A DNA stretch of 64,000 nt, taken from contig CAVPNL010000015.1 of assembly GCA_963706575.1 (NCBI GenBank), positions 352,001 to 416,000 on the forward strand, written 5' to 3'. This DNA comes from an uncultured delta proteobacterium (GTDB lineage: Bacteria; Desulfobacterota; Desulfobacteria; Desulfobacterales; JAHEIW01). The position numbers were made by a program, and so were the translations under genes. This document shows, one piece after another, positions 47,435-61,919 of the stretch. The notes under the pieces are model-generated. The model was not told the origin of the DNA, ran no database searches, and saw only the letters and a list, made by a program, of their open reading frames with translations. Each line of letters starts with the position of its first letter. The stretch's first letter is position 1.

Positions 47435-48343
47435 ATGAAATCGATCTTACGGCGAGCATTCAATACCATTTCAATCCTGCTGATGGCGTGCACCATCGTT
47501 ATGGCATCATCCGGGTCGGCTGCGGCCGTCAGCCTATCATCAGCGAATGTCGCCAATGGGCAGGTGACTGTTCTCGAAATTAATTTGCACGATCTGGATC
47601 CGGCCGCAACCGATCTGAAAGCCATTTTCGGGCAAAACACGATTGCCCTTTTCCAGCACCCGGTTAAGCCCACCGGGATCTATTGCGGGCTGGTCGGAAT
47701 TCCGATAAGCACCACACCACAAAAAGCGGTCATCGAACTGCAATGGACGGATTCCCGCGGTCGTCATAAAGCAAGGGTTGCTGTTCGCATCGTTGCAGGA
47801 AACTACAAAAAAGAAGCCTTGCGTGTGGCACCGCGGCATGTAAAGCCGAGCCCGAAAAATCTGCGGCGTATCAAAAATGAAAAAAAAGAGATCCGCCGCA
47901 TCTATGCCAGCAGCAGCAACACCCGCCTATGGTATGGCAGTTTTAACAAGCCACTTGCCAGCGATATCACCAGCGCTTTTGGAACTCAGCGGTTGTTTAA
48001 CGGCCAGCTTCAAAGCTACCACCGGGGCACTGATTTGCGTGCCAAGACGGGCACACCGGTCTACGCATCCAATTTCGGGATCGTCAGACTGGCTAAAAAC
48101 CTATTTTATTCAGGCAATATTGTCATTGTGGATCATGGCAAGGGCATCTTCACCAATTATGCCCATTTAAGTAAAATTCAGGTGGTTGCCGGCCAGCATG
48201 TTACCCGAGGCGATCAAATCGGGTTGAGTGGTGCCACCGGGCGGGTCAGTGGTCCACATCTGCACTGGGGAGTGAAAATTAATGGGACTTATGTAGATCC
48301 GCTGCAGTTTCTCGCTGTTATTTCCGACCTGTTGGAACCGTAA
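47435..48343 (+). CDS. M23 family metallopeptidase
   Basis: Signal peptide. HRGTD, YAHL and GPHLH Zn-binding motifs. Confidence 0.92.
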   Translation: MKSILRRAFNTISILLMACTIVMASSGSAAAVSLSSANVANGQVTVLEINLHDLDPAATDLKAIFGQNTIALFQHPVKPTGIYCGLVGIPISTTPQKAVIELQWTDSRGRHKARVAVRIVAGNYKKEALRVAPRHVKPSPKNLRRIKNEKKEIRRIYASSSNTRLWYGSFNKPLASDITSAFGTQRLFNGQLQSYHRGTDLRAKTGTPVYASNFGIVRLAKNLFYSGNIVIVDHGKGIFTNYAHLSKIQVVAGQHVTRGDQIGLSGATGRVSGPHLHWGVKINGTYVDPLQFLAVISDLLEP

Positions 48344-48478
48344 TCAAAATACATCCAACGATTAGAAAATTTCTTCGCTTCTTCATCCAGCAACGATTGC
48401 CTATTTTTCCAGGATGCACCGGCAAAAAGAGCAATTTTTTCTTTGTGCCAACATCCATTACCCGGTCATTTTCATCGT

Positions 48479-48536
48479 TAACTATTTGATTTTATATCAA
48501 TATACTGCTGAAACTAATTTTGGAACAGATATTGCT
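48479..48536 (+). promoter_or_regulatory. IHF site plus sigma54 promoter
   Basis: TAACTATTTGATT (48479-48491; reverse complement fits WATCAANNNNTTR) and TTGGAACAGATATTGCT (48520-48536; GG-N10-GC). Confidence 0.7.
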
Positions 48537-48596
48537 AATTATTTTAGGATTCAAAGACCCCCTGACGGCTGATAAGCCCTAATACGGTATTTAAAA

Positions 48597-49367
48597 ATGG
48601 TTTCCATAACGAATTACCCCAACAGCAAAACCCTGGTGAGCCTTAGCGGCATCCCCAAAAATTTACCGAATCGGGTCCTGGAGGCCAGAAACAGCCGGTT
48701 TCAAAAAATTCTTTCCGCATTTGAAGCCCGCAATTCTAAAAATTCTTATAAAACCAGCGGGTTAACGATTGCCGACTACCGCGCCCGAGCGATCATTCCA
48801 AAATCACGTTACCGGCGGCAGCCTCAACCGGCCGATACACAATTGAAAAATACCATTTCGAATCGATTTCCGGCTCAAGCTGCGTTAGGGACCCCGTCGC
48901 GTCCTGACCATAAGATTAAAGATAAGGGTCCCTTTGAACCACTGCTGAAAAAAACCGGACCGCAACCCGTCGCCTTAACCGACCAGCAAATTATCGAACA
49001 AACGGTTCAAAAAGCAGCCGCAAAATACAATTTGCCGCCGGAGCTGATCACGGCTGTTATCCGGGCTGAATCAAACTTTACGGTTAGCGCCGTTTCTTCG
49101 GCCGGCGCCCAGGGTTTGATGCAGCTCATGCCGGCAACCGCTAAAGAGCTGGGAGTCAAAAATCCCTTTGATATCGAGCAAAATATCGACGGCGGCACGA
49201 AATATTTACGGAAGATGCTGGATCGTTTCGGGGGCAGTGTCCGCAAAGCCCTGGCAGCCTATAATGCCGGCCCGGGAACCGTAATGAAATATAACGGCCG
49301 GGTCCCCTATCCGGAAACCCGGCAGTATGTCAAGCGCGTGTTGCGATTTTCCAGGCAGATGACCTGA
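48597..49367 (+). CDS. Lytic transglycosylase (SLT domain)
   Basis: AVIRAESNF, GAQGLMQLMPATA, AAYNAGPG and ETRQYV motifs. Confidence 0.92.
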   Translation: MVSITNYPNSKTLVSLSGIPKNLPNRVLEARNSRFQKILSAFEARNSKNSYKTSGLTIADYRARAIIPKSRYRRQPQPADTQLKNTISNRFPAQAALGTPSRPDHKIKDKGPFEPLLKKTGPQPVALTDQQIIEQTVQKAAAKYNLPPELITAVIRAESNFTVSAVSSAGAQGLMQLMPATAKELGVKNPFDIEQNIDGGTKYLRKMLDRFGGSVRKALAAYNAGPGTVMKYNGRVPYPETRQYVKRVLRFSRQMT

Positions 49368-49595
49368 TTAAAGCCAGCCTTCAAAGATTTTACCCTGCCG
49401 ATTTTCTTCCGAATCTTCATCCCAACAATGATATGAATTTTATCCGCTTTCGAATATAATCAGCTACAAGCACCATATTAATTCAAAATAAAATAATACC
49501 CCAAGTTTTTTTGTTGACAGGCGTCCGCCATTCGATTATACCCCACGCTTTAATTTCCAGCAGCCCTGATCGCTGGGATCAATGAGGAAAGGACA

Positions 49596-50264
49596 TTGAA
49601 CACAATTACCAGATATAATAAGCAGCCGCTTTACGATACCGCAGGACAGGTCCCCAAACTAAGTACCATCGCCGCTGCGCTGGGCATTAAAGATCCCTAT
49701 ACCCGGGAACACAACCGGCGGGTTGCGATTTATGCTCGCCGGCTGGCCGAGCGCATCGGTCTGAGTGCCGGAACCGTTGAAAATATCCAACTGGGCGGTC
49801 TGCTGCATGATATAGGAAAAATCGGTCTGAGCGCAAAGGTTCTCAACAATACGCACGAGCAGCTGTCCGGCGACATGATGGCTGAAGTGCATTTGCACCC
49901 GCTAATGGGTGCAGCTATCTTAAAGAATCTTGATGTTCCCGCGCCGGTTATTGATTATGTCCGATACCATCATGAAAAAATGGACGGCAGCGGTTACCCC
50001 TTTGGACTCCGCAACGACCAGATCCCGCTGGGCGCCAAAATTATCCGGGTGGCCGATTGTTTTGATGCCATTACAACGGACCGGCCGTATCAGCAACGCA
50101 AAAGCTGGATCGAGGCTCTGGCTGTTTTACGTCAAATCAGCGGCACTGACCTAAATCCCGCGCTGGTTGCGGCATTCATTGCCGACATAAAAGAAAACGG
50201 GCTGGCGCTAGACCCGACCCGTTCCATCTCGCTATACAGCCCGATTTCTCAATATCTTTTTTAA
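49596..50264 (+). CDS. Stand-alone HD-GYP phosphodiesterase
   Basis: KDPYT.EH..RV, LHDIGK, HHEKMDGSGYP and AD.FDA.TTDRPY motifs. TTGACA-N17-TATACC promoter at 49514-49542. Confidence 0.92.
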   Translation: MNTITRYNKQPLYDTAGQVPKLSTIAAALGIKDPYTREHNRRVAIYARRLAERIGLSAGTVENIQLGGLLHDIGKIGLSAKVLNNTHEQLSGDMMAEVHLHPLMGAAILKNLDVPAPVIDYVRYHHEKMDGSGYPFGLRNDQIPLGAKIIRVADCFDAITTDRPYQQRKSWIEALAVLRQISGTDLNPALVAAFIADIKENGLALDPTRSISLYSPISQYLF

Positions 50265-50378
50265 AATTTAAAAGACCGCATCCGGCCTTTGTGGCTGGAT
50301 CATCATTTCTTTCGCTGCTCGGCTGGGCAGGCGGCAACCGGTATGTTTTAATCGGCCTGGCAGAATGAGACCATCAAA

Positions 50379-51557
50379 TTGACTCCTCAAACAAAAGGCG
50401 CCAACACAAGGGTTATTCTAGCCTTAACTCTGATCCACTTCATTGGCGACTTCTATAACGCCTTTATCATTCCCCTGCTGCCGCTTTTTATCGACAAATT
50501 CTCATTAACCCTGGCCCAGGCCGGCCTGGTTACCGGTCTGAGCCGTTTTCTGGCCTTTGTGGTCCAGCCCCCGGTCGGGTATCTTGCCGACAGGCACCCT
50601 TCGCGCTTCTTTGCCCTGGGCGGGCCTCTGATGGTGATGGTGTTTATTCCGCTAACCGGAATTACGCCTCATTTCTGGATGCTGGTCCTTTGTGTCTGTC
50701 TGGGTTCGATCGGATCTTCCATGTTTCATCCCACCGCCGCCGGGATGGTCCAACCCTACGCAGGCCGCCATTTCGGAATGGCCATGTCCATCTTTGGCAC
50801 TGGCGGTACGTTGGCATTTGCCGTCGGGCCGCTGTTTATCAGCTGGCTGGTCGCCAGATATGGCCTGGGTGCGACGCCGTTTTCAATGATACTGGGTATC
50901 GGGGTCATCATTTTTATTTTCAGGACCGTTCCGACGCCCCAAGCCAGTATACTGAAAAGTCATGGTTTCATTAATTCCATTAAAGAAGTTTTTGGAGCCG
51001 TATGGCTTCCGATCGTCTTGATCCTGATGGTCATGATTATGCGCGCTTTTGTCAGTCAGTCGTTTATGACCTATCTGCCCGTAAAGGTTGCACGCCTGGG
51101 CTATTCGCTGGTTTCTATCGGCACCCTGGTTTCACTGTTTACTATCGCCGGTGCGCTGAGCGGTCTTTTGGCCGGCCACCTTTCCGATCGGATTGGATTT
51201 AAACCCGTGTTTATTTGCGCTCATCTTCTGGCAACACCCTGTATCGTCGCCGCGCTTTATCTGCCCGGCAATTGGATTTTCATATTTTGTTTTTTGTCCG
51301 GTTTTTTTATTCTGGCCACTATCCCGCTGGGGGTTGCCCTGGCACAAAAGCTGGCCCCCAAAGGAAAAGCCATGGCCTCCAGCCTGATGATGGGGCTCGC
51401 CTACGGCACGGGCGGGTTGCTGACCCCGTTGACAGGAAAGCTGGCGGATATATTTACGATCCAGCCGGTATTGACCGTAATCGCCATTGTCCCCGTATTG
51501 ACCCTCGTGCCCATTATTTATCTATTTAGTAAGGATCCTTCAACGGTCACGGCCTGA
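50379..51557 (+). CDS. MFS transporter (Fsr-like)
   Basis: H..GD, QPPVGYLADR, FHP, GG.L.FA.GP and GHLSDRIG motifs. Confidence 0.9.
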   Translation: MTPQTKGANTRVILALTLIHFIGDFYNAFIIPLLPLFIDKFSLTLAQAGLVTGLSRFLAFVVQPPVGYLADRHPSRFFALGGPLMVMVFIPLTGITPHFWMLVLCVCLGSIGSSMFHPTAAGMVQPYAGRHFGMAMSIFGTGGTLAFAVGPLFISWLVARYGLGATPFSMILGIGVIIFIFRTVPTPQASILKSHGFINSIKEVFGAVWLPIVLILMVMIMRAFVSQSFMTYLPVKVARLGYSLVSIGTLVSLFTIAGALSGLLAGHLSDRIGFKPVFICAHLLATPCIVAALYLPGNWIFIFCFLSGFFILATIPLGVALAQKLAPKGKAMASSLMMGLAYGTGGLLTPLTGKLADIFTIQPVLTVIAIVPVLTLVPIIYLFSKDPSTVTA

Positions 51558-51672
51558 GATCCGCAAAAAGAGCGCAGGAATTCTCCGATCTTCGATTTAC
51601 AAAAAGAAGATCATACCTATAATAGATTTTAGGTTTTCGCCTGGAATCGTTTGAATACAAGGACAGTAAAAG

Positions 51673-51810
51673 ATGGACGAAGATATATTTGAATATATGG
51701 ATGAATTGGATTGTGAAGTAACCGTTTTCGACGGCGCCTACAAAACCTGCGAGATGGCTGAAGAAGAGACCTATGAGGAAATCGAAATTTATAAAGATTT
51801 TGATATTTAA
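51673..51810 (+). CDS. 45-aa highly acidic microprotein
   Basis: Not in ORF track. AAGGA upstream. MDEDIFEYMDELDCEVTVFDGAYKTCEMAEEETYEEIEIYKDFDI* (18 D/E, 2 K). Confidence 0.6.
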   Translation: MDEDIFEYMDELDCEVTVFDGAYKTCEMAEEETYEEIEIYKDFDI

Positions 51811-52034
51811 GCGTTTTATGGTAGATAAGGTTTTGGGTTAGCCGGTTTAACCAGTTGAGTCGGCTGAGCCCGTTTAAATTGGAAAAATATCTGAACTTAA
51901 TTTTTGCGGGCAAACAGGCTAACGGGCAACTGGACAAGGCGCACAACCTGTGGAATTCGGACATCTTGAGCCGAACTATAACACTAACCTGGACACGTAG
52001 ACACCTTTTTAAGAATTATTCCATAAGGAGGAAG

Positions 52035-52268
52035 ATGGAAATGACCGAAACAACTCCCCAAAAAACATTCAAGCAAGTCTGCACCTGCCAAAATTGTGGC
52101 AATGAGGCTGAAATGATTATCACCTGTTCCTTTGAACCCGATGAGAGTAACGCCACCGTACGTGCCGCGCACACCGTTGTGGAAAAACCCGCCCACAAAC
52201 AGCGGCCGGGGCAAGCCACCTGCACGCATTGCGGGAATGAGGCCGAAATAATAGTCGATATCGGATAG
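52035..52268 (+). CDS. Small metal-binding protein with duplicated CxxCGNEAE motif
   Basis: AAGGAGG RBS. CTCQNCGNEAEMII ... TCTHCGNEAEIIV. Start is 52035 or 52041. Confidence 0.8.
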   Translation: MEMTETTPQKTFKQVCTCQNCGNEAEMIITCSFEPDESNATVRAAHTVVEKPAHKQRPGQATCTHCGNEAEIIVDIG

Positions 52269-52303
52269 CGCGATGCCATCAAATGTAAACTAGAGGAGAT
52301 GGT

Positions 52304-52780
52304 ATGAAATCCATCGCCATGATTATGGTCTTCTTTTTTGTCGGCCTAACCGCGTCAGGGGTGCAGGCCGAAATTTACTCCTGGACCGATGAAAACGGTG
52401 TCAAACATTACAGCCACACCCCACCACCCGATCGATCGGTTCCCGTAAAAGCTGCTCCTGAAATCCAGACCGATCCGACAGCCGATCAGAAGATAGAAAA
52501 AATAAACGAAGAAAACATCGACGCCATTCTCGAGGAGCTTGAAAAAGAAGAACAGGCGTCCGCCCCAAAGCCGGCCAAAACCCATAAACAGCCTTCCCGC
52601 CAGGAGCGCATCGCAGCCGAAAAGGAAAAACTGGCAGAAAAGATCGCGTGGTTGGAACAACTCCCGCCGGAGGCCTATACGAACACGCGCAGCAAGCAGG
52701 CCATCATCGGGCGCTATCGGTATCGGAAGCAGCAGTTGGAGTCGAACCCCGATGAATACTTCAAGAATTATGGGTACTAG
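52304..52780 (+). CDS. DUF4124 domain secreted protein
   Basis: Signal peptide, then AEIYSWTDENGVKHYSHTPP and a coiled coil. Confidence 0.88.
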   Translation: MKSIAMIMVFFFVGLTASGVQAEIYSWTDENGVKHYSHTPPPDRSVPVKAAPEIQTDPTADQKIEKINEENIDAILEELEKEEQASAPKPAKTHKQPSRQERIAAEKEKLAEKIAWLEQLPPEAYTNTRSKQAIIGRYRYRKQQLESNPDEYFKNYGY

Positions 52781-52842
52781 GTTCTGGAAGTAGATTTCAT
52801 GTGTCCGTCCTCGCGTATCAGTCAATTTTCAGGTGTTACAAC

Positions 52843-52932
52843 TGTTTCATTCGTTTGATTGGTTTAATTCGTTCAATTGGTTCGCTTTAAACCAACCAAT
52901 TCAACCAATGAAACAAATAAAACAAATCGAAC
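52843..52932. repeat. 9-bp-period inverted repeat element (ATTGGTT / AACCAAT family)
   Basis: GTTTCATTCGTTTGATTGGTTTAATTCGTTCAATTGGTT ... AACCAATTCAACCAATGAAACAAATAAAACAAATCGAAC. Confidence 0.8.
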
Positions 52933-52952
52933 AATCATTTGAAACCCTGAAC

Positions 52953-54248
52953 CTATGAACCTGACGACTGACAGACCAGCTGATAATCCTGCCGTAGCAC
53001 AAGAATAAATCCTATCCAAATGGCGCAGATGGAGACGGTGAGCCAGCTGAGCTGGGGCACACTGACCTGAAAAGGCAACCATTGCGTAAACAGCAGGATG
53101 ACAACAGAGCCGGTAACCTTAAACAGTCGGTAGCCAAACATGTCGATCCAGGCTTTGGCCTGATAGAGCAGGACTGAATCGAGCGGAACATACAATAGCT
53201 CCTTGGAAGCCCGGTTGATTGAATACGAAAGGGCTCTGTCGCTGATTTTGGTGGCACTGCTGAAAAAAAGCGTTGACTGCAGAAAAAAACACCAGGAAAA
53301 AATAAACATCATCAGCGGCTGAACCAGCAACCCGGCAATCGCACCTAAATAGCGGTGCACCAGCGGGGTGATCCCGAGATTGACGGCAATCGACATCATC
53401 CCCAATACGCTAAAAAACAGCGATAGAAAGGCGGTGCGGGCTTCCCGCTCCGGGTAAGCGCCTTCAACCGTGTTCAAAAACTGATACTCAACCAGCGGCG
53501 ATGCCAGCTGCGCAAAAAGCAAAATGGCCGCAATCAACAGTAAATACCGACTGTGCGTTAGAATTCGCCAACCCCCGCTGGCCTTCTGATGCGGGCGAAC
53601 CACGTGCTCGACCTCACAGTAAATACCCACGCGTCCCATCAACCAGGTCAATGCAAAAATGGTCCCGATGATGACGGCGGCGGTCAGCAGCAGATCCGGT
53701 GTCTGCAAGGGCGTGTGCCGGATAAGCATGGCCGAGACCCAGCCCCCGGCCACTCCGCCAACCAGACCACCGGTACCCACCAGCCCGTACCAGGATTTAC
53801 CTTCATGGGTGGTGTAAATCGAGTTGGTCAGACTCCAGAATTGTTCCACCAGAACCACGCCCAGGATATCGACAAAAACAAAAAAACAAGCGGCAACCCA
53901 TACGGTGGAATGGCTCATCAACACACGAAAAACGACCAGCAGGATGCTAATGGTCAGGCAGGTGCCGAGCACCACGTTGATCCGGCTGTGGCGCTCGACC
54001 AGACGGTGATAATAGCTGATAAAAACGCCCATGGTTACGGCGGTGGCGATCCAGATGTAGGGCAGACGCTCGGCGCCCAGGGATTCGATAAAAAGAGACC
54101 GACTGGCCGGCTTGAGCTGATAAAGGGCCATGATAATTAGAAAAAAGTTCATAAATAAAAATGTCGCCCGGAATCCCAAAGTGCGCAGAGCGATATATTT
54201 GGCATCGCATTCCGCGGTAATATCATGATTTGAATTTTTTGCTTGCAT
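52953..54248 (-). CDS. TLC/NTT (Npt1/Npt2-like) nucleotide transporter family MFS protein
   Basis: LKPASRSLF, QFWSLTNSIY...GKSWYG, YSINRASKELLYVPL and KAWID...YR motifs, about 12 TM. Confidence 0.8.
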   Translation of the reverse strand: MQAKNSNHDITAECDAKYIALRTLGFRATFLFMNFFLIIMALYQLKPASRSLFIESLGAERLPYIWIATAVTMGVFISYYHRLVERHSRINVVLGTCLTISILLVVFRVLMSHSTVWVAACFFVFVDILGVVLVEQFWSLTNSIYTTHEGKSWYGLVGTGGLVGGVAGGWVSAMLIRHTPLQTPDLLLTAAVIIGTIFALTWLMGRVGIYCEVEHVVRPHQKASGGWRILTHSRYLLLIAAILLFAQLASPLVEYQFLNTVEGAYPEREARTAFLSLFFSVLGMMSIAVNLGITPLVHRYLGAIAGLLVQPLMMFIFSWCFFLQSTLFFSSATKISDRALSYSINRASKELLYVPLDSVLLYQAKAWIDMFGYRLFKVTGSVVILLFTQWLPFQVSVPQLSWLTVSICAIWIGFILVLRQDYQLVCQSSGS

Positions 54249-54277
54249 TTTTCGCCTGTTGCGTAATAATAATGATT

Positions 54278-55165
54278 ATGAATAAGCTGCTCACAATGTC
54301 CACCCTGCTCTGCAGTTTACTGCTTTTCACCTTCACGGCCGGCGCCCAGCCTCAGGATCCGTCCTGGGCTGAAAGCTGTGACCCCCGCCTGCAAAAAGCG
54401 CTGGAGACGCGTTTGAATACCCTGCACCTGGACCGCGCCACCCAGCGTAAGCTTCTGAGCATTGTCGTCGTCGATATTACCGATGTTTCCGATCCCCGCA
54501 TGGCTTACATTAACCCCAACGAAATGATGTATGCCGCCAGTTTACCCAAGATTGCCATTCTTTTAGGTGCTTTTGAAAAAATTGCAGCTGGGCAAATGAC
54601 CTTGGATGACGAAACCCTCGAAAAGCTAAAGCTCATGATCCAGCGTTCCTCCAATACAGCGGCCTCCGAGATGCTGAACCGTGTGGGTATCGATTATTTG
54701 GCCGAACTGCTGCAGTCCCCCCGCTACCGGCTGTATGATTTTGAAAAAAACGGCGGTATCTGGGTCGGTAAAGAATACGGCAAGGCACCGGCACAAAGAC
54801 GGGATCCGCTCCACAATCTATCGCACGGCGCCACCGCTCTGCAGGTGGCCCGCTTTTATTACCTGCTGGAAACCGGACAGCTGGTTTCGCCGGAACTGAG
54901 TAAATTAATGAAATCGATCCTAGCGGAAACCGAAATCGAGCACAAGTTTGTCAAAGGGCTAAGAGCGGTTCAGCCGGACTCGGAGATTTACCGCAAATCC
55001 GGTACCTGGGGACCTTATCATTCCGACAGTGCCATCATCGAGCACCATGGCCGGCGTTACATTGCCGTGGCTCTTGCCAAAAGTCGCCAGGGTGAACAGT
55101 GGCTCCAAAAGCTAATTGTGGCGCTGGACGGCATCATTTGTCCGGTTGAGACCCATTCGAACTAA
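54278..55165 (+). CDS. Exported class A beta-lactamase/PBP-like serine hydrolase
   Basis: Signal peptide ending AGA. SxxK (ASLPK), SxN (SSN) and KSG motifs. Confidence 0.85.
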   Translation: MNKLLTMSTLLCSLLLFTFTAGAQPQDPSWAESCDPRLQKALETRLNTLHLDRATQRKLLSIVVVDITDVSDPRMAYINPNEMMYAASLPKIAILLGAFEKIAAGQMTLDDETLEKLKLMIQRSSNTAASEMLNRVGIDYLAELLQSPRYRLYDFEKNGGIWVGKEYGKAPAQRRDPLHNLSHGATALQVARFYYLLETGQLVSPELSKLMKSILAETEIEHKFVKGLRAVQPDSEIYRKSGTWGPYHSDSAIIEHHGRRYIAVALAKSRQGEQWLQKLIVALDGIICPVETHSN

Positions 55166-56432
55166 ATTTTCCCACCTTGTAATATTTCTCCAGCATGCGA
55201 TGAATGCGTGTGGCCAGCGTTTGATGTACAACGGCTGAATTTTTGCGCAACACATTCGACATGACCACCACCATGTAATACAGCTGTCGCTCGGCGGCCG
55301 GCGCCTCGATAATCGCCACCGAGTTGAGCATATTGGTGACATTGCCGTGATATTTTTTACACTCAAAACCGGGTTCGGCTTTGCATTTATACAGCGAGCC
55401 GGATTTAAAATAGACCGCCGCGGCGGCCAGCGCCGGTGATGAGGCATAGCGGATACGCCGCTGCGTCATATACAACAGCCGTTTGATTTCGCGGCTCGAG
55501 AAGGCATCCACCAGTTTTCCCTGCTCCAGTTTTAGCAACCAGCGCAGCAGTTCCCGTGGTGTGGCGTAACTGGTCGTTCCCGGCACCAGCCGCTTGCCCT
55601 GCCGCGTAAAAAAAGACCCCTGGCGCAGCTGCTCCAAATCCAGCCCGTTACGCACCACCGGATACTGCAAAGCCCGTGACAGCAAGGCGGCAAGCTCCTT
55701 TTTCGAAGTGGCCTTAAAAAACTGTTGGGCCTCAGTCTCGCTGACCGGATAGGCCGACCCGTAATGCACCAGCAGCATCAGGTGTTTCAATACCATACTG
55801 GCGGCCGCGTTGGAGCTGGCCGAAAGCATCCAGTCCAGATAGGTCCATAAGCTGGCCTGGTCACCCATCTGAATTTTAGGATAGCGCACCCGGGAATCTC
55901 CCGGCTGCCAGAGCGGAACCACATGGTGATCCCATTGAATGAATTCATCGGCGGTGACCAGAGTGTTGCGTAATATGCTCAGGCGCGAATCGATATCGTC
56001 CGGATAAACGTCGGCCAGCGCCTGAAAAATACCCAGGGCAATCAAAATTTTACCCACGCTGCCCGGGTTGGCCCGCTCTGTGCTGCGGTGTTCAGCATAT
56101 CGCGGCTGTTCGATGTTGGTTAGATCCAGCACCGAGACAGAATAGTGATCCGCTTCAGGGCCCAGCAAGTCTTGCAAGCGGGCAACAAATTCCGCGTCGG
56201 GCGGCGGGATCTCAAAATCGGTTCTGGCTCCCAGGCGTATATCCACCTGATCGATTGGCAGCAGGGCACCCGGAGGCTGCTTGGGCGCCCGCACCTTGCC
56301 TTCCATGGCCAGGCGATAGCCTTCCAGCCTGGCGATGCCCGTATAGTCATAACCATCCAGTGGATAGGCTCCACAGGGTGCGGCAAAAATCAAACCGATA
56401 ATACAAACAACAGCACTGAAGCGCAGTTTCAT
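55134..56432 (-). CDS. Exported class A beta-lactamase/PBP-like serine hydrolase
   Basis: Signal peptide. SxxK (GSVGK), SSN and KSG motifs. Start overlaps the dikinase stop (ATGA). Confidence 0.82.
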   Translation of the reverse strand: MKLRFSAVVCIIGLIFAAPCGAYPLDGYDYTGIARLEGYRLAMEGKVRAPKQPPGALLPIDQVDIRLGARTDFEIPPPDAEFVARLQDLLGPEADHYSVSVLDLTNIEQPRYAEHRSTERANPGSVGKILIALGIFQALADVYPDDIDSRLSILRNTLVTADEFIQWDHHVVPLWQPGDSRVRYPKIQMGDQASLWTYLDWMLSASSNAAASMVLKHLMLLVHYGSAYPVSETEAQQFFKATSKKELAALLSRALQYPVVRNGLDLEQLRQGSFFTRQGKRLVPGTTSYATPRELLRWLLKLEQGKLVDAFSSREIKRLLYMTQRRIRYASSPALAAAAVYFKSGSLYKCKAEPGFECKKYHGNVTNMLNSVAIIEAPAAERQLYYMVVVMSNVLRKNSAVVHQTLATRIHRMLEKYYKVGKFSSNGSQPDK

Positions 56433-59353
56433 CTTTGCACCTCTGGCGGGATTTCATCTAGGTTGACCGTTTCAGCATGATGTTGTTGCAAGCGGCTGTC
56501 AAGATTGTTCAAAAAAAGATTTTGCTGGGCCCTGACGCTTTCCAGAAATGGCCGAATTTGAAATAGCATCAGTCGATTCTGGTAAAAACCAAACTCGATA
56601 TCCGCCGGCACCGGCTGGCCCTGAGCGTCCTGTAACTTGGGAAACCGCTCGGGTACCGTGCGGGCAAAATCCATCAAATGCCGGACCTCGGCCTCACTTA
56701 ACAGCGCCAGCGTTCCGCTGGCCGAAATTTTCGATACGCCGCCCCCGCTTAACAGCACCCGTTTATAAGGATCGGTCGCATGGGCCAGAAAACGGATGCC
56801 GCCGTTTTGCGTGTTGATCTTGAGTTCCTCTGCAGTTTGGCCCGAGACCGCTCCGCCAACGCCCTCATTTATTGCCACCGTCAGCCAGCCCGGCTTTCCG
56901 CTTTCAATATCTGCCGTAACTAAAACGCCGGACTTTTCCACCGGAACGCTTTTCATCAGCAGCACCGATGCGTAAACATGTTCCGGGGTTTCCATATAGG
57001 CCTGGCGCCATCGAAACGCGCGCTCGGAAAACGGCGAGGCCCATACCCGCTGAATGGCTGCCATGACGTTTTCAAAACCGACGACATGGGGCACGGTCAA
57101 ATTGAGACCGGCACCGGTAAATCCCGGCAAATCTTCCACGTTGGTGTCGCTGCGCACAAAGACGCCATACGTTCCATCCGGGCCGAAGGTATCCTGCATG
57201 GCTGCCCGCAGCTTGTTGCGAAATGCTTCACCTGGATCCGCCTGCACAATCCATTTGCGAATTTTCTCTAAAAAATTTTGAGTGATTTGATCCTGTCGTT
57301 GGGGATCGCCCTTAAGGAGCCGGATGATTTTGTATTGATCCTGCATCCAGCGAAAAGCCGTAATTCCGCCAGGTTCGATGGGCTGCTCGAGTAATTGCCG
57401 AAATAGTCCAAAGGGAATCACCAGGCCGTCGGCCACAGGTTCCGGAAAATAGTGTTTGAGTTCGCCCAAATTGGCGGCTTTGGGGCCGCAGATCCTTCCC
57501 GAATCCGCGCTACGCAGCATATCGAGGGAAAACAGGCGGCGGGTATCCAGATCCAGCTTTTTAAGGTCCGGCCGAATCAAAAGTGGTTTCGGGCCCTTAG
57601 CCGTATCAAAGATGGGATCCCACTGCGGGCCATCAGCTGCCAGCTGAACAATTCCGCGCGGACTGACGGCCATCACCACCTGCTGGTCTGCCATGGATTG
57701 AATCAAAGGCAACCATTTCTGATCGATGGCCACATTCGGAATACCCAGATTGCGGGCCAGCAGCTGAACATGGGATAAAATATTGCCTTCGCCGGTCGTC
57801 AGTATCCCGGCAACCGGCGGCAGATCTTCGGTGGTCGAGGGTAACACGTAAATGCCTTTTGAATCAAATTTAACCGGGGATTTACCGGATGACGATATTT
57901 TTAGCCTGCCGCGCGCCAGACCGGCATTTAAGCCTCTTAATCCCGAATCGGCCGGCTGCCCGAAAAGAAAGTTGCGGATTCCAAGCTGCCGATTGGCGTC
58001 GGCAATCAGGCTCTCGAGTACCGCCGCATAAGACAGCAGGAGGCTGCCGCGCAGGCGATCATGAATGTAACGGCGACTGAGCGGTTCAATGGTTTCAAAA
58101 TGCCTGACGGTTTCACCCAGGTAATATCGCAGTGTTCGGTCGGCCCATTCGGGCATGCGCGCGGTATACTCTAGTTCAGCCTTGTAATCCATGAGCAGCG
58201 GCTGATTCTGCATGAGCTGGCTTAGGTTTTGCTGCAGCGCCTGTTGCTGGCGTACGGAAATAAGCCCGATGCCGTAAAGACCATCGGCATATTTCATCAG
58301 CCACGAGAGCCTTTCACGGCGGGAGGCTTCCGCCAGTTGCCCGACCATGATATCGCCCATGCGAAACAACTCGCCTTCCAACAAAATACTGGCATCCAGC
58401 ACGGCCAGTTTCTGGGAAGCGTCGCCGGCATTGGCCAGACCATCGCGCAATATTGCCAGCAAGTGGCTGGCAGTTAAAAAGCGCGTTTTAGAATCGGTCT
58501 CGCTGGAAAGCTTGTCCGTATAGGGCTCAAGGTTTCCGGTCAGGGGGGTATTTTTGACCCTTTGGGTCAGCGCTGCAATCTCCTTTTGGATATCCTGGAC
58601 TTTGAACACCTGTTCGATGGTCTCGATGAGATGGGCATAGTCTTTGGCCAGTTCCGGCTTTCCCTGTCGGGCGGCATAATCTTGCACCTGTCGGGCATCA
58701 GCGAGCTCCGGATGGACGTGCAGCTTTATGCGAATCGTTTCAAAATCAGGATCGCTTTCCGCAATCGCGCGTGAAAGCTGCCGCATCTCGGTAATCGGTG
58801 CGCCCGGGCGGCCATGGGGAATAAACCGCACGGCTTCTCGCAGCACCATGAACTGATTTTCGGGCCAGTCCGGATCGGAAACCAGGGCCAGCAAAAGCTC
58901 GCGCCCTGCCCGGGTTTCGTCTTCAGTCTGCAGCGCGCCTCGATAATAGCGAGCACGACGGAAAATCCAACCATCATCAGCTTCAATCAGAAATTGCTCC
59001 AGAATCATTTGCTTGACGATATCCAGATACCGGGCGTCCTGCAGAAATTCCTGGGCGCGCACATCGGCAAAAACATTGGCGATAAAGTGTCCATTGTTCC
59101 GCAGGGTCCGAACCCGGTCCGTCCATTCACCATGCTGCACCCCGCCATCGTGATCGCGGCAGGCATATTCCTGCGGTAGCTGAATGGTGCCGTCATTGCA
59201 AAACCAGCGGATATGTTTGAATGGTCCCCGGGGGGACGTTTTCATGACCTGTACCCAGCTGCGCAGGGTTGCGGCATCGGGCGGGTCCGCCTGTGCAAGG
59301 ACAAGGCTGGGAACCAGTAAAAGGAAAGACAATATAAGTGCTAAGGGCTGCAT
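56429..59353 (-). CDS. Signal-peptide-bearing PEP-synthase/PPDK-like dikinase (phospho-His swivel plus nucleotide-binding domain)
   Basis: MQPLALILSFLLLVPSLVLA-QAD signal. TTGEGNILSHVQLLARNLGIP phospho-His motif. GPKAANLGEL, VRSDTNVEDLPGFTGAG and DIEF..LFQIRP. No pyruvate/PEP TIM barrel. Confidence 0.85.
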   Translation of the reverse strand: MQPLALILSFLLLVPSLVLAQADPPDAATLRSWVQVMKTSPRGPFKHIRWFCNDGTIQLPQEYACRDHDGGVQHGEWTDRVRTLRNNGHFIANVFADVRAQEFLQDARYLDIVKQMILEQFLIEADDGWIFRRARYYRGALQTEDETRAGRELLLALVSDPDWPENQFMVLREAVRFIPHGRPGAPITEMRQLSRAIAESDPDFETIRIKLHVHPELADARQVQDYAARQGKPELAKDYAHLIETIEQVFKVQDIQKEIAALTQRVKNTPLTGNLEPYTDKLSSETDSKTRFLTASHLLAILRDGLANAGDASQKLAVLDASILLEGELFRMGDIMVGQLAEASRRERLSWLMKYADGLYGIGLISVRQQQALQQNLSQLMQNQPLLMDYKAELEYTARMPEWADRTLRYYLGETVRHFETIEPLSRRYIHDRLRGSLLLSYAAVLESLIADANRQLGIRNFLFGQPADSGLRGLNAGLARGRLKISSSGKSPVKFDSKGIYVLPSTTEDLPPVAGILTTGEGNILSHVQLLARNLGIPNVAIDQKWLPLIQSMADQQVVMAVSPRGIVQLAADGPQWDPIFDTAKGPKPLLIRPDLKKLDLDTRRLFSLDMLRSADSGRICGPKAANLGELKHYFPEPVADGLVIPFGLFRQLLEQPIEPGGITAFRWMQDQYKIIRLLKGDPQRQDQITQNFLEKIRKWIVQADPGEAFRNKLRAAMQDTFGPDGTYGVFVRSDTNVEDLPGFTGAGLNLTVPHVVGFENVMAAIQRVWASPFSERAFRWRQAYMETPEHVYASVLLMKSVPVEKSGVLVTADIESGKPGWLTVAINEGVGGAVSGQTAEELKINTQNGGIRFLAHATDPYKRVLLSGGGVSKISASGTLALLSEAEVRHLMDFARTVPERFPKLQDAQGQPVPADIEFGFYQNRLMLFQIRPFLESVRAQQNLFLNNLDSRLQQHHAETVNLDEIPPEVQR

Positions 59354-59534
59354 AAATCTCAACGTTACCTTTGTCGAATCAAACAGAATCGGAAACAGAT
59401 TGTAGCTGTGCTTTCGGATGAAATTCTTCTCGCTAACCGACAGATATTCATATATAATAGTCATGATTTGCGATTTGGCTATATTCAGGACATGCTTTTA
59501 GGCTGTTGTCAACCCTCTAAAAAGGAGACCGCCG

Positions 59535-60579: not shown

Positions 60580-60647
60580 GTTATTGAAACAGTAATAGCT
60601 TAGTAACCTGCAATAAAAATGAATTGAACAATGACGAGGAGTCAAGA

Positions 60648-61919
60648 ATGTCCGACCTAAGAAATCTGTTAAAAATATCGGATGATCGCCTGGCGGAAAT
60701 CAATGCATTGATGACGGATCCGGGCAACGAACTCATCAATGAATTGCTGGAAGTCATCGAATCATTCGGCGGGCCCCAGGAAATCAACCGCAAAGCGCAA
60801 GAAGCCGCTAGGCTTGAAAATTTGACGGCCCAGCTAAAAGCTGCCAAATCGTCCTATATAGACGATTTGAACTGGCTCATTGAACAAAGGGACAACGGGG
60901 CTTTCATTTCCATGCAAGACTATTACGAGCGTGTGCTGGGCGACAAAGGCAACACTGCTGAAATCGACCACAAGAATGAGGTGACGCTAGAAATCAGCGC
61001 CTTGCAGTATTTTCCCTGGCTCATCGCTGAAGCCCGGCGCAGCATTGATCAGCAAGAATTGATGCCCGGCCGTTATATCCGGGTGCGAAATATGGCGGAG
61101 CAGGAAACCGACAACGGCGATATCATGGCCACAGCAGCGGCAATGCAGATCATTGGCGCCAGTTGTGTCGAAACACTGGACACCAAGGGAACAGACGGTT
61201 CCAACATCCACCTGGGCGGCCCGGAAACCATCACGGGATATTTCGGCGGGGTGGGGCAGCCCAACGAATATCCCGTCAAATGGGTCAAAGAATATCTGAA
61301 ATTTTATACAACCTTTGGCATCCGACAGGTGCTCAACATCAACCCGGGAACGGTCCTGGTGGGATATTTGCTCCACAAACTGGGTGTGAACAACGAGTTT
61401 AAAATTTCTGTGTTCATGGGCAATGACAATCCGTTTTCGATCCTGTGGACTCTGACCACCGCCCGGCTTTTTTCGCGCGATGACGGCACCACCTCTTTAA
61501 TCGGATTTAACTTGTCCAATTCGGCCAACAATGAAACCATCCGCAAAGCCGCCGTCATCCGCAGGGCCCTGGGCCTGGAAAATGTCGTCCGGTTTGAACA
61601 TCACATTACCGAAACCTGGAAATCCATCGTTCGCCAGCCTTACAACCGCAGAGATGAGCTGGTCGAAATCGCCCGAGAAGTGTCCAACATTTCGGCCAAA
61701 CATGAGGGCGGTGAAGTGGACATCGAAAGTGAACTGGAACACCCGTCCGACATACTGGATTACTTTATGGCCAAAAGTGATGTGGAAAAACAGGGATTGA
61801 TGCCGGCCCTTGAGAAAAATTATATCGAAAAACACCGATCGACAAACCTGACAGCCGATGCTTTAACCAGAGCTGGCATCGGTGTGGTGTGCGCCGCCGA
61901 ACTTCATAAAGCATCTTGA
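60648..61919 (+). CDS. Uncharacterised soluble enzyme-like protein downstream of panB
   Basis: 423-aa ORF with GAGGAG RBS and motif-like LDTKGTDGSNIHLGGPETITGYFGGVGQP, EHHITE and SAKHEGG. No family recognised. Confidence 0.85.
   Translation: MSDLRNLLKISDDRLAEINALMTDPGNELINELLEVIESFGGPQEINRKAQEAARLENLTAQLKAAKSSYIDDLNWLIEQRDNGAFISMQDYYERVLGDKGNTAEIDHKNEVTLEISALQYFPWLIAEARRSIDQQELMPGRYIRVRNMAEQETDNGDIMATAAAMQIIGASCVETLDTKGTDGSNIHLGGPETITGYFGGVGQPNEYPVKWVKEYLKFYTTFGIRQVLNINPGTVLVGYLLHKLGVNNEFKISVFMGNDNPFSILWTLTTARLFSRDDGTTSLIGFNLSNSANNETIRKAAVIRRALGLENVVRFEHHITETWKSIVRQPYNRRDELVEIAREVSNISAKHEGGEVDIESELEHPSDILDYFMAKSDVEKQGLMPALEKNYIEKHRSTNLTADALTRAGIGVVCAAELHKAS

Follow-up and report, generated by a model that had tools for sequence, protein, structure and literature searches.

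A four-gene module in a 64,000-nucleotide stretch of DNA from an uncultured deltaproteobacterium of the order Desulfobacterales (positions 352,001 to 416,000 of contig CAVPNL010000015.1, assembly GCA_963706575.1; the whole stretch is called the window below) encodes a putative exported dikinase (here DIK), a carrier of the TLC/NTT nucleotide translocator family, and two putative exported serine enzymes of the Beta-lactamase2 family (here blaL and blaS). DIK has all the sequence features expected of an active His-swivel dikinase, the ATP-grasp residues as well as the swivel histidine, and, judging from the N-termini of their homologues, DIK, blaL and blaS are very probably all exported. The DIK gene is accompanied in most related loci by a gene for a TLC-type carrier. 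These features are suggestive, though no proof, of a supply of ATP by these bacteria to their periplasm. That compartment is generally taken to be free of ATP, and its processes are accounted for by energy passed on from the inner membrane. We incline, without great confidence, to the view that the carrier delivers ATP to a periplasmic dikinase and that the four genes constitute a conserved module for ATP-dependent phosphotransfer outside the cytoplasm.

The dikinase catalytic core

DIK matches the Pfam family PPDK_N (PF01326) with 92.6 bits (cut-off 27) over profile positions 4–314 of 328, and the PEP-utilizers family (PF00391) with 20.0 bits, just below the cut-off of 23.1. An exhaustive search of 1.84 billion representative proteins found 4417 homologues at E <= 1e-3, of which 454 reach E <= 1e-30. 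Most of the best 150 are full-length, with about 940–1010 amino acids and 30–55% identity to DIK, and one, a fragment of 459 residues, is 58% identical. Conservation was judged from an alignment of 116 of these best 150 sequences, with identities down to 29%. The catalytic histidine (H507 of the mature protein, H529 of the precursor, codon 57770–57772) is conserved in at least 90% of them; in the ATP-grasp domain no variation is seen at K604, R713, D897 or R913, and at least 90% of the sequences keep E899 and Q911.

The AlphaFold2 model of DIK (predicted local distance difference test, pLDDT, 94.7; predicted TM-score 0.93) has three parts, a small beta element followed by an all-alpha region (residues 1–437), a swivel domain (~440–560) and an ATP-grasp domain (~580–953). 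Foldseek searches with the model matched the ATP-grasp part alone, to rifampin phosphotransferase (RPH; 5hv1, E 1.4e-11), phosphoenolpyruvate (PEP) synthase and HpeI. The DIK family profile aligns with PEP synthase 8a8e (E 6.2e-38) in two pieces: profile positions 658–955, the ATP-grasp domain, align with 8a8e residues 77–374, and positions 475–556, the His domain, align with residues 382–467, where the SH motif falls on TSH and the catalytic histidine on histidine. The order in DIK is thus N-terminal domain, His domain, ATP-grasp domain, with the last two swapped relative to PEP synthase. DIK therefore shares with PEP synthase and pyruvate phosphate dikinase (PPDK) the aligned ATP-grasp and His-swivel domains and the conserved nucleotide-site residues, but differs from them in its permuted order, in being predicted to be exported, and in having no Pfam match to the PEP/pyruvate-binding TIM barrel; it scores 90.6 bits against the NCBIfam PEP synthase models, whose cut-offs are at least 598. 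The NCBIfam equivalog models that could have named the module proteins (PEP synthase, rifampin phosphotransferase, class A beta-lactamase and NTP/NDP exchanger) all give scores far below their cut-offs, and none of ten distant DIK representatives belongs to a cluster that carries a name.

The dikinase N-terminal domain

The N-terminal domain, presumed to bind the acceptor substrate, contains the invariant residues W29, W108, R117, Q121, E125 and H191 and a cysteine pair, C31/C44, that is at least 90% conserved in the same 116 sequences. Folded alone it is again predicted with high confidence (pLDDT 92.0) as a small beta element followed by an all-alpha part. Foldseek found nothing in the PDB at E <= 0.001 (best value 0.24), and a VIA-align search of 48,161 chains returned generic helical bundles only, for residues 231–439 (best Z 10.8, 90 residues aligned); this fold search barely covered residues 1–230, the most conserved part, and a known fold may have been missed. 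In the ESM Atlas the domain matched just clusters that resemble its own family (best 0.90), RPH entries were absent among the matches listed for it, and Pfam gave no CBM45 or CBM20 match in this region. The substrate-binding part of DIK is thus apparently new, or at least unrecognised. A preliminary description of this DNA, made from its letters and reading frames, had offered a glycan, a muropeptide or an antibiotic as possible substrates; since the domain matches no solved fold, none of these guesses has gained support.

Probable export of the three enzymes

The N-termini of DIK homologues are mutually unrelated in sequence, yet the n-region stays basic, the core hydrophobic and the end of AxA type or made of small residues. 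In all 21 locus N-termini examined a hydrophobic segment can be seen by eye ahead of the conserved RGPF motif. With a core defined as a 10-residue window of mean Kyte-Doolittle hydropathy of at least 2.0, one is present in 116 of the 128 representatives (among 150) that have at least 25 residues before the (K/R)GP(F/Y) motif; the other 12 are mostly borderline (1.8–1.99) or have apparently miscalled starts, and the 22 that were set aside lack the motif region or start no more than 9 residues from the motif. Hydrophobic N-termini are also found in 74 of 79 blaL homologues and 62 of 67 blaS homologues. The cysteine pair C350/C358 of blaL is invariant, and conservation of this pair and of C31/C44 in DIK fits the presence of periplasmic disulfides. 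As all three proteins bear Sec-type signal peptides, DIK, blaL and blaS are predicted to work in the periplasm of their diderm Desulfobacterales host.

The carrier

The carrier matches the Pfam TLC family (PF03219) with 77.2 bits (cut-off 21) in two stretches, and phmmer aligns it with two ATP/ADP translocators of solved structure, 9j3n (E 2.4e-10) and Arabidopsis NTT1 (9j3j, E 1.6e-7), so by sequence it is a true but divergent relative of these proteins. In Arabidopsis NTT1 (AtNTT1) the residues K155, E245, E385 and K527 are important for transport, K527 for triphosphate specificity, according to the supplement of PMC7969357. Residues D127, E254 and K377 of the window's carrier align with E245, E385 and K527, respectively (positions 161, 301 and 443 of the 9j3j chain, which are E, E and K; the offset of 84 to AtNTT1 numbering is inferred). 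Among 33 carriers of the subtype to which it belongs, type A, D127 and K377 are each present in all 33, and position 254 is glutamate in 28 and aspartate in five.

The carrier thus resembles the NTT/TLC proteins (TC 2.A.12) of Chlamydia, Rickettsia, plastids (NTT1) and 'Ca. Azoamicus' (TlcA) in its TLC score and in its kinship with the solved translocators, and it has residues of the same charge at three of the AtNTT1 positions, but it is short and divergent, its host is a free-living sediment bacterium, and the proposed destination of its cargo is the cell's own periplasm and not a host. The TlcA carrier is itself speculated to exchange ATP between endosymbiont and host, with ATP leaving the bacterium (Graf et al. 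2021, PMC7969357, in the portion available), and the available text of Major et al. 2017 (PMC5381601) lists NTTs of free-living bacteria and leaves their roles open. Co-folding of the carrier with the ATP-grasp domain of DIK (residues 560–953) gave a score of 0.00, which in the absence of controls is evidence neither way.

The two serine enzymes

Both serine enzymes match the Pfam family Beta-lactamase2 (PF13354), with 76.9 and 40.7 bits (cut-off 22), and their SxxK, SxN and KSG motifs are conserved in 79 blaL and 68 blaS homologues. These features are shared with the PBP-A (Tll2115) DD-peptidases and the class A beta-lactamases. The blaS profile matches the PBP-A structure 2j7v weakly (E 0.028) and in fragmentary stretches, and blaS differs from class A beta-lactamases in scoring only 16.7 bits against NF033103 (cut-off 200). 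For blaL there is no NCBIfam match, and neither its single sequence nor its profile found anything meaningful in the PDB; the name given to blaL relatives in the ESM Atlas is 'putative beta-lactamase'. The preliminary description had listed the products of the module as a ~970-residue dikinase with a signal peptide, a TLC/NTT-family transporter and two serine hydrolases with signal peptides and SxxK/SxN/KSG motifs, and all of these identifications agree with the lengths, family scores, solved-structure matches, conserved motifs and hydrophobic N-termini found here.

Conservation of the module among related loci

One scan of a genome collection and one of metagenomes yielded 113 related loci, of which 107 include the DIK C-terminus. 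Among the 903 open reading frames (ORFs) of these loci only the four module families are widely common, being found in 111, 82, 72 and 67 loci, and the next most frequent family is found in 23; an arrangement in which only these four are widely shared is far from chance. Partner counts are based on the 45 loci that extend at least 5 kb downstream of DIK. Here a TLC-type carrier is present in 41, blaL in 43 and blaS in 40. A first tally had assigned blaL, blaS and a type-A carrier to 33 loci, blaL, blaS and a type-B carrier (21–23% identical) to three, blaL and blaS only to three and blaL only to four, with one locus lacking blaL and one lacking all three partners. Examination of the exceptional loci with Pfam and hhalign then showed that L095, L106 and L110 encode PF03219 carriers and that L103 has a TLC-like protein of the HEAT-fused kind (hhalign probability 96.4%), which gives 34 type-A, six type-B and one HEAT-fused carrier among the 41. 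The four genes thus occur together across distant lineages, a second phylum included, which is the co-occurrence that the preliminary description had proposed to look for.

In a tree of 57 dikinases (in which L103 is labelled 'none') the carrier types are clustered, and well-supported branches force at least three switches between types A and B. Three divergent carrier subtypes occupy this place in all, and the dikinase has kept a TLC-type partner across the changes of subtype. The position of the carrier varies as well: it lies directly upstream of DIK in genomes G448 and G645, and in G206 and G349 a HEAT-fused carrier forms an operon with blaS within about 4 kb of DIK.

Several loci carry additional genes. 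Two genomes of the same genus, G307 (locus L121) and G320 (locus L122), have a second DIK, 48–49% identical, with its own blaL and type-B carrier, and two paralogous systems of this kind are thus present in one cell. Longer TLC-like genes (~730–1090 codons), some with HEAT and cyclic-nucleotide-binding domains, lie just past the module carrier in L095 (14242–17505) and in G391, G474, G505 and G647, which links the widespread NTT-HEAT fusions to the neighbourhood of the module. In L122 (719–2539), L111 and L095 the gene that comes after the type-B carrier encodes a 5'-nucleotidase C-terminal domain, and a class B acid phosphatase is encoded near the module in L106 (9399–10247), L045, L013 and L047. 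In both families the known members dephosphorylate nucleotides in the periplasm, and at these seven loci they could dispose of AMP made by the dikinase. The panB, ABC-F ATPase and ferredoxin-type neighbours were considered as further module members and rejected as lineage-local synteny. We note that locus L027 (8001–10023) contains a decayed module, in which DIK lacks roughly residues 297–608 and blaL is reduced to its first 87 residues; no blaS or carrier gene is present within 8 kb of it.

Presence and absence in genomes

The host genome (5.67 Mb) has one DIK-family dikinase and one TLC homologue, the carrier of the cluster. Among 81 relatives DIK was found in 26, and 22 of the 24 other genomes of the same family are DIK-positive. 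A carrier at least 70% identical to that of the window is present in 22 of the 26 DIK-positive and in none of the 55 DIK-negative relatives; twelve of the latter have distant TLC-like genes. In two genomes (G311 and G314) DIK is at the end of a contig, and two of the same genus (G303 and G317), which are 85% and 82% complete, have neither DIK nor carrier. In an even sample of the phylum DIK is rare, being present in two of 301 genomes.

A second sample consisted of 300 genomes of the class that contains the gammaproteobacterial locus L033. The DIK family is present in 27 of these; four further matches covered the ATP-grasp part only and were counted as other dikinases. The carrier was found at E <= 1e-130 in 25 of the 27 DIK-positive genomes and in none of the 273 others, 36 of which have weaker TLC-like matches, and with G415 and G672 left out the counts are 24 of 26 and none of 272. 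In 19 genomes a TLC-type carrier lies no more than about 10 kb from DIK on the same contig, directly upstream of it in two; in one of the 19, G580, this carrier is a weaker match of the fused type, 3 kb from DIK.

A possible mechanism

In the mechanism that we propose, the carrier, seated in the inner membrane, would send ATP outward and bring in an adenine nucleotide from the periplasm (ADP or AMP, perhaps together with inorganic phosphate, Pi), driven by the high cytoplasmic ATP concentration and the membrane potential. DIK would bind the exported ATP, transfer its beta-phosphate to His529 and release AMP and Pi. The His domain would then swing to the N-terminal domain, where a hydroxyl group would be phosphorylated, or a carboxyl or carbonyl oxygen activated, on an envelope component or an imported substrate. 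The blaL and blaS proteins, as acyl-serine enzymes resembling penicillin-binding proteins (PBPs), would act on the same material before or after its phosphorylation; our best guess, which we hold weakly, is that this material is a cell-wall component that contains peptide or D-Ala. Rather little credence can be given to the most specific form of the idea, that some diderm bacteria deliberately energise the periplasm in this way, with ATP exported by an NTT, wall or envelope material phosphorylated or activated (as an acyl-phosphate type of intermediate) by the dikinase, and the intermediate resolved by the PBP-like pair. The preliminary description had interpreted the locus along similar lines, and its proposals of export, co-occurrence and NTT kinship have held up, whereas outward transport of ATP, use of ATP in the periplasm and a shared substrate are still inferred.

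A number of observations weigh against ATP delivery by the carrier. The carrier is a divergent NTT, with 67.3 bits against the NTP/NDP exchanger model TIGR00769 (cut-off 387.2) and 431 residues where the two matched translocator chains have 586 and 610. The equivalent of K155 could not be placed in it (K46, invariant in both subtypes, is a candidate), and eight type-B carriers lack equivalents of E245 and K527 in a rough alignment. The N-terminal domain of DIK gave no fold match. ATP and AMP could be lost through general porins, being small enough to pass them, the module encodes no route for the return or re-phosphorylation of AMP, and phosphatase genes adjoin the module in seven loci only, with neither type present in the window. 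The blaS gene is on the other strand, and the four genes are not one transcript. Four of the 45 loci (L027, L076, L091 and L104) have no nearby carrier; in G464 the carrier is about 1 Mb from DIK, the DIK-positive genome G524 gave no TLC match in the genome scan, and the second DIK copy of G375 has no adjoining carrier. As to the counts themselves, related genomes are not independent, the thresholds of 70% identity and E <= 1e-130 were chosen post hoc from gaps in the scores, and the carrier profile (A5) was built from DIK-linked carriers.

Genomic coupling argues that dikinase and carrier work jointly and is silent on the direction of transport. A serious though unlikely alternative is that DIK is periplasmic and the carrier takes up its product or by-product (AMP or some other nucleotide, or a compound that has been phosphorylated or nucleotidylated) or moves a different nucleotide, while DIK obtains its phosphoryl donor from another source, which might be ATP in the environment. 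Most of the characterised NTTs are importers, and some NTTs move other nucleotides or NAD (PMC5381601 and the supplement of PMC7969357, as far as their available text extends), and the 5'-nucleotidase and acid phosphatase genes beside seven loci would fit nucleotide salvage. However, full conservation of the ATP-grasp site implies that DIK would still require a nucleoside triphosphate where it works, beyond the cytoplasm, and no other source of one is encoded; K377, at the position of triphosphate specificity, is invariant in type-A carriers, and a free-living bacterium with a 5.7-Mb genome has no obvious need to import energy.

It is very unlikely, in our judgement, that the locus is an antibiotic-resistance island, with periplasmic inactivation of drugs by two beta-lactamases and a kinase resembling rifamycin phosphotransferase. 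RPHs are the closest solved structures to the ATP-grasp domain of DIK and are likewise swivel kinases, of three domains, that phosphorylate a hydroxyl group of a non-metabolic substrate, and the membership of both serine enzymes in Beta-lactamase2, together with the Atlas name of the blaL relatives, would suit such a role. RPHs are cytoplasmic enzymes, however, with a domain order different from that of DIK, which scores 69.1 bits against the RPH model NF041857 (cut-off 999) and 40.3 against NF000283 (cut-off 1700), and the class A beta-lactamase score of blaS is similarly deficient. The module is moreover a stable chromosomal one, retained by nearly all genomes of the family among syntenic housekeeping neighbours such as panB, no mobile-element genes were seen adjoining it in the window, and drug inactivation leaves the obligatory nucleotide carrier unexplained.

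We attach hardly any weight to operation of DIK in reverse, by which a high-energy phospho-compound of the periplasm or the environment, AMP and Pi would yield ATP that the carrier imports as a form of energy scavenging. It is general knowledge that swivel dikinases such as PPDK are reversible, but also that the water dikinases (PEP synthase, GWD and RPH) release Pi to water, so that reversal is unfavourable for ordinary phosphate esters. The characterised NTTs do import ATP, according to the available text of PMC5381601; DIK, however, has no Pfam-recognisable TIM barrel with which to bind PEP or pyruvate, and its two PBP-like partners would have no explanation. Equally improbable, and already disfavoured, is that the hydrophobic N-terminus has no role in export, or the start codon is misplaced, so that DIK is a cytoplasmic enzyme with coincidental neighbours, an outcome which the preliminary description had said would overturn it: the signal peptide of the window's DIK has no basic residue after the methionine and the ORF remains open for 36 codons further upstream, but homologues with unrelated N-termini keep all three parts of a signal peptide, the cysteine pair is conserved, both partner enzymes are predicted to be exported, and the co-occurrence extends well past local synteny.

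Relationship to known systems

The closest parallel to a dikinase fed by an NTT is found in plastids. The alpha-glucan, water dikinase (GWD1) and phosphoglucan, water dikinase (PWD) of plants and algae resemble DIK in having a phosphohistidine domain before a C-terminal PPDK_N-type domain and a large N-terminal substrate-binding region, and in the expected chemistry, in which ATP gives AMP, Pi and a phosphorylated acceptor. In the dark the plastid stroma is supplied with ATP by an NTT carrier, so that members of the same two protein families cooperate there. DIK differs in being bacterial, in its Sec signal peptide and in its mostly alpha-helical N-terminal domain without CBM45 or CBM20, and the likeness is one of domain order and expected chemistry. 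Enzymes that need ATP outside the cytoplasm are known elsewhere: the periplasmic DNA ligase Lig E is an exported ATP-dependent enzyme without a known ATP source, and in the eukaryotic endoplasmic reticulum and Golgi lumenal kinases are fed by dedicated ATP carriers. The protein families concerned are unrelated to those of the module, in which, unlike these cases, enzyme and candidate carrier are genetically linked, and this linkage makes the question of the ATP source testable.

If the carrier does supply ATP to DIK, the module would give the first genetic sign that ATP is deliberately supplied to the periplasm. It would also establish a dikinase family that is new and has a new substrate domain, and point to an envelope chemistry, dependent on phosphate, in which PBP-like enzymes take part. 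The NTT homologues of free-living bacteria, whose role is left open in the available text of PMC5381601, would thereby acquire one. A corollary of the most specific form of the idea, to which we give rather little credence, is that the plastid pairing of an NTT with a GWD-type dikinase may be derived from, or parallel to, a bacterial module of this kind. A literature search, with subscription journals outside its reach, brought up no publication on a dikinase that is exported and paired with a nucleotide carrier, nor any on solved NTT structures, and to that extent the statement of the preliminary description that no system of such composition has been described stands.

Gene arrangement, expression and neighbouring genes

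The features of the module are collected in Table 1.

Table 1. Features of the dikinase-carrier module (window coordinates)
Feature	Position	Strand	Remarks and basis
Inverted repeat, AT-rich, long and imperfect, 3' of carrier gene	52836..52940	.	Sequence
Carrier (type A, TLC/NTT family, predicted inner-membrane)	52953..54248	-	431 aa; Pfam, NCBIfam, phmmer, residue alignment
blaS, putative exported Beta-lactamase2-family serine enzyme	54278..55165	+	295 aa; motifs S88-L-P-K, S124-S-N, K240-S-G
blaL, putative exported Beta-lactamase2-family serine enzyme	55134..56432	-	432 aa; motifs S125-V-G-K, S206-S-N, K343-S-G
DIK, putative exported His-swivel dikinase	56429..59356	-	975-aa precursor; start set by homologues
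DIK C-terminal ATP-grasp nucleotide-binding domain (PPDK_N)	56432..57553	-	Pfam, Foldseek, profile alignment
DIK phosphohistidine swivel domain	57611..57970	-	Aligned with PEP synthase His domain
DIK N-terminal domain, mature residues 1–440	57971..59290	-	AlphaFold2; presumed acceptor-substrate domain
DIK Sec-type signal peptide, predicted	59291..59356	-	MQPLALILSFLLLVPSLVLAQ/A; hydrophobic segment kept in homologues

The four ORFs span 52953–59464 of the window. The blaS ORF (54230–55165, + strand) has 311 codons from a TTG, and its likely start is the ATG at 54278, from which the protein begins MNKLL; the DIK ORF (56429–59464, - strand) has 1011 codons, and its likely start is the ATG at 59356, directly 5' of the hydrophobic segment. 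The DIK stop and the blaL start overlap by 4 nucleotides, the 3' ends of blaL and blaS overlap convergently by 32 nucleotides (55134–55165), and the start codons of the carrier and blaS genes diverge across a 29-nucleotide gap (54248–54278). The preliminary description had these overlaps and the gap right in calling the four genes tightly packed, and left unmentioned that the 311-aa gene is on the opposite strand; it also had the correct DIK gene but ended it at 59353, one codon short of the ATG. The orientation of blaS opposite to the other three genes, which is kept in most related loci, means that the four do not form one operon, and there are at least three transcription units, DIK with blaL, blaS, and the carrier. 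With a divergent spacing of 29 nucleotides the promoters and 5' leaders of the carrier and blaS genes must each lie inside the coding region of the other, and the convergent and divergent packing of blaL, blaS and the carrier may make their expression coupled or opposed.

Contigs from RNA libraries of two sediment studies match parts of all four genes at 90–99% identity, among them a 581-nucleotide contig in the carrier gene with three differences and a 1041-nucleotide contig over blaS with 20. RNA libraries can contain DNA, and the contigs tell neither strand nor level, so these matches are only a hint that close relatives express the module genes.

The inverted repeat, with its aacc/ttgg-type words, separates the carrier gene from a DUF4124 gene and may be a terminator. 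Contigs of the RNA libraries accumulate on it, to a summed depth of 133 in run X2, and have many loose ends; this pattern points to a repeat common to many organisms. A match to an Rfam microRNA family at 52846–52929 (30.7 bits, gathering threshold 91) was rejected as chance on a hairpin. Upstream of the module, at 47435–52780, the window encodes an M23 peptidase, an SLT lytic transglycosylase, an HD_5/HD-GYP-type protein, a major facilitator superfamily transporter and the DUF4124 protein; the synteny of these envelope-related genes with the module is restricted to Desulfobacterales relatives. On its other side a 431-aa ORF without a Pfam match (60624–61919, + strand) adjoins panB in 14 related loci.

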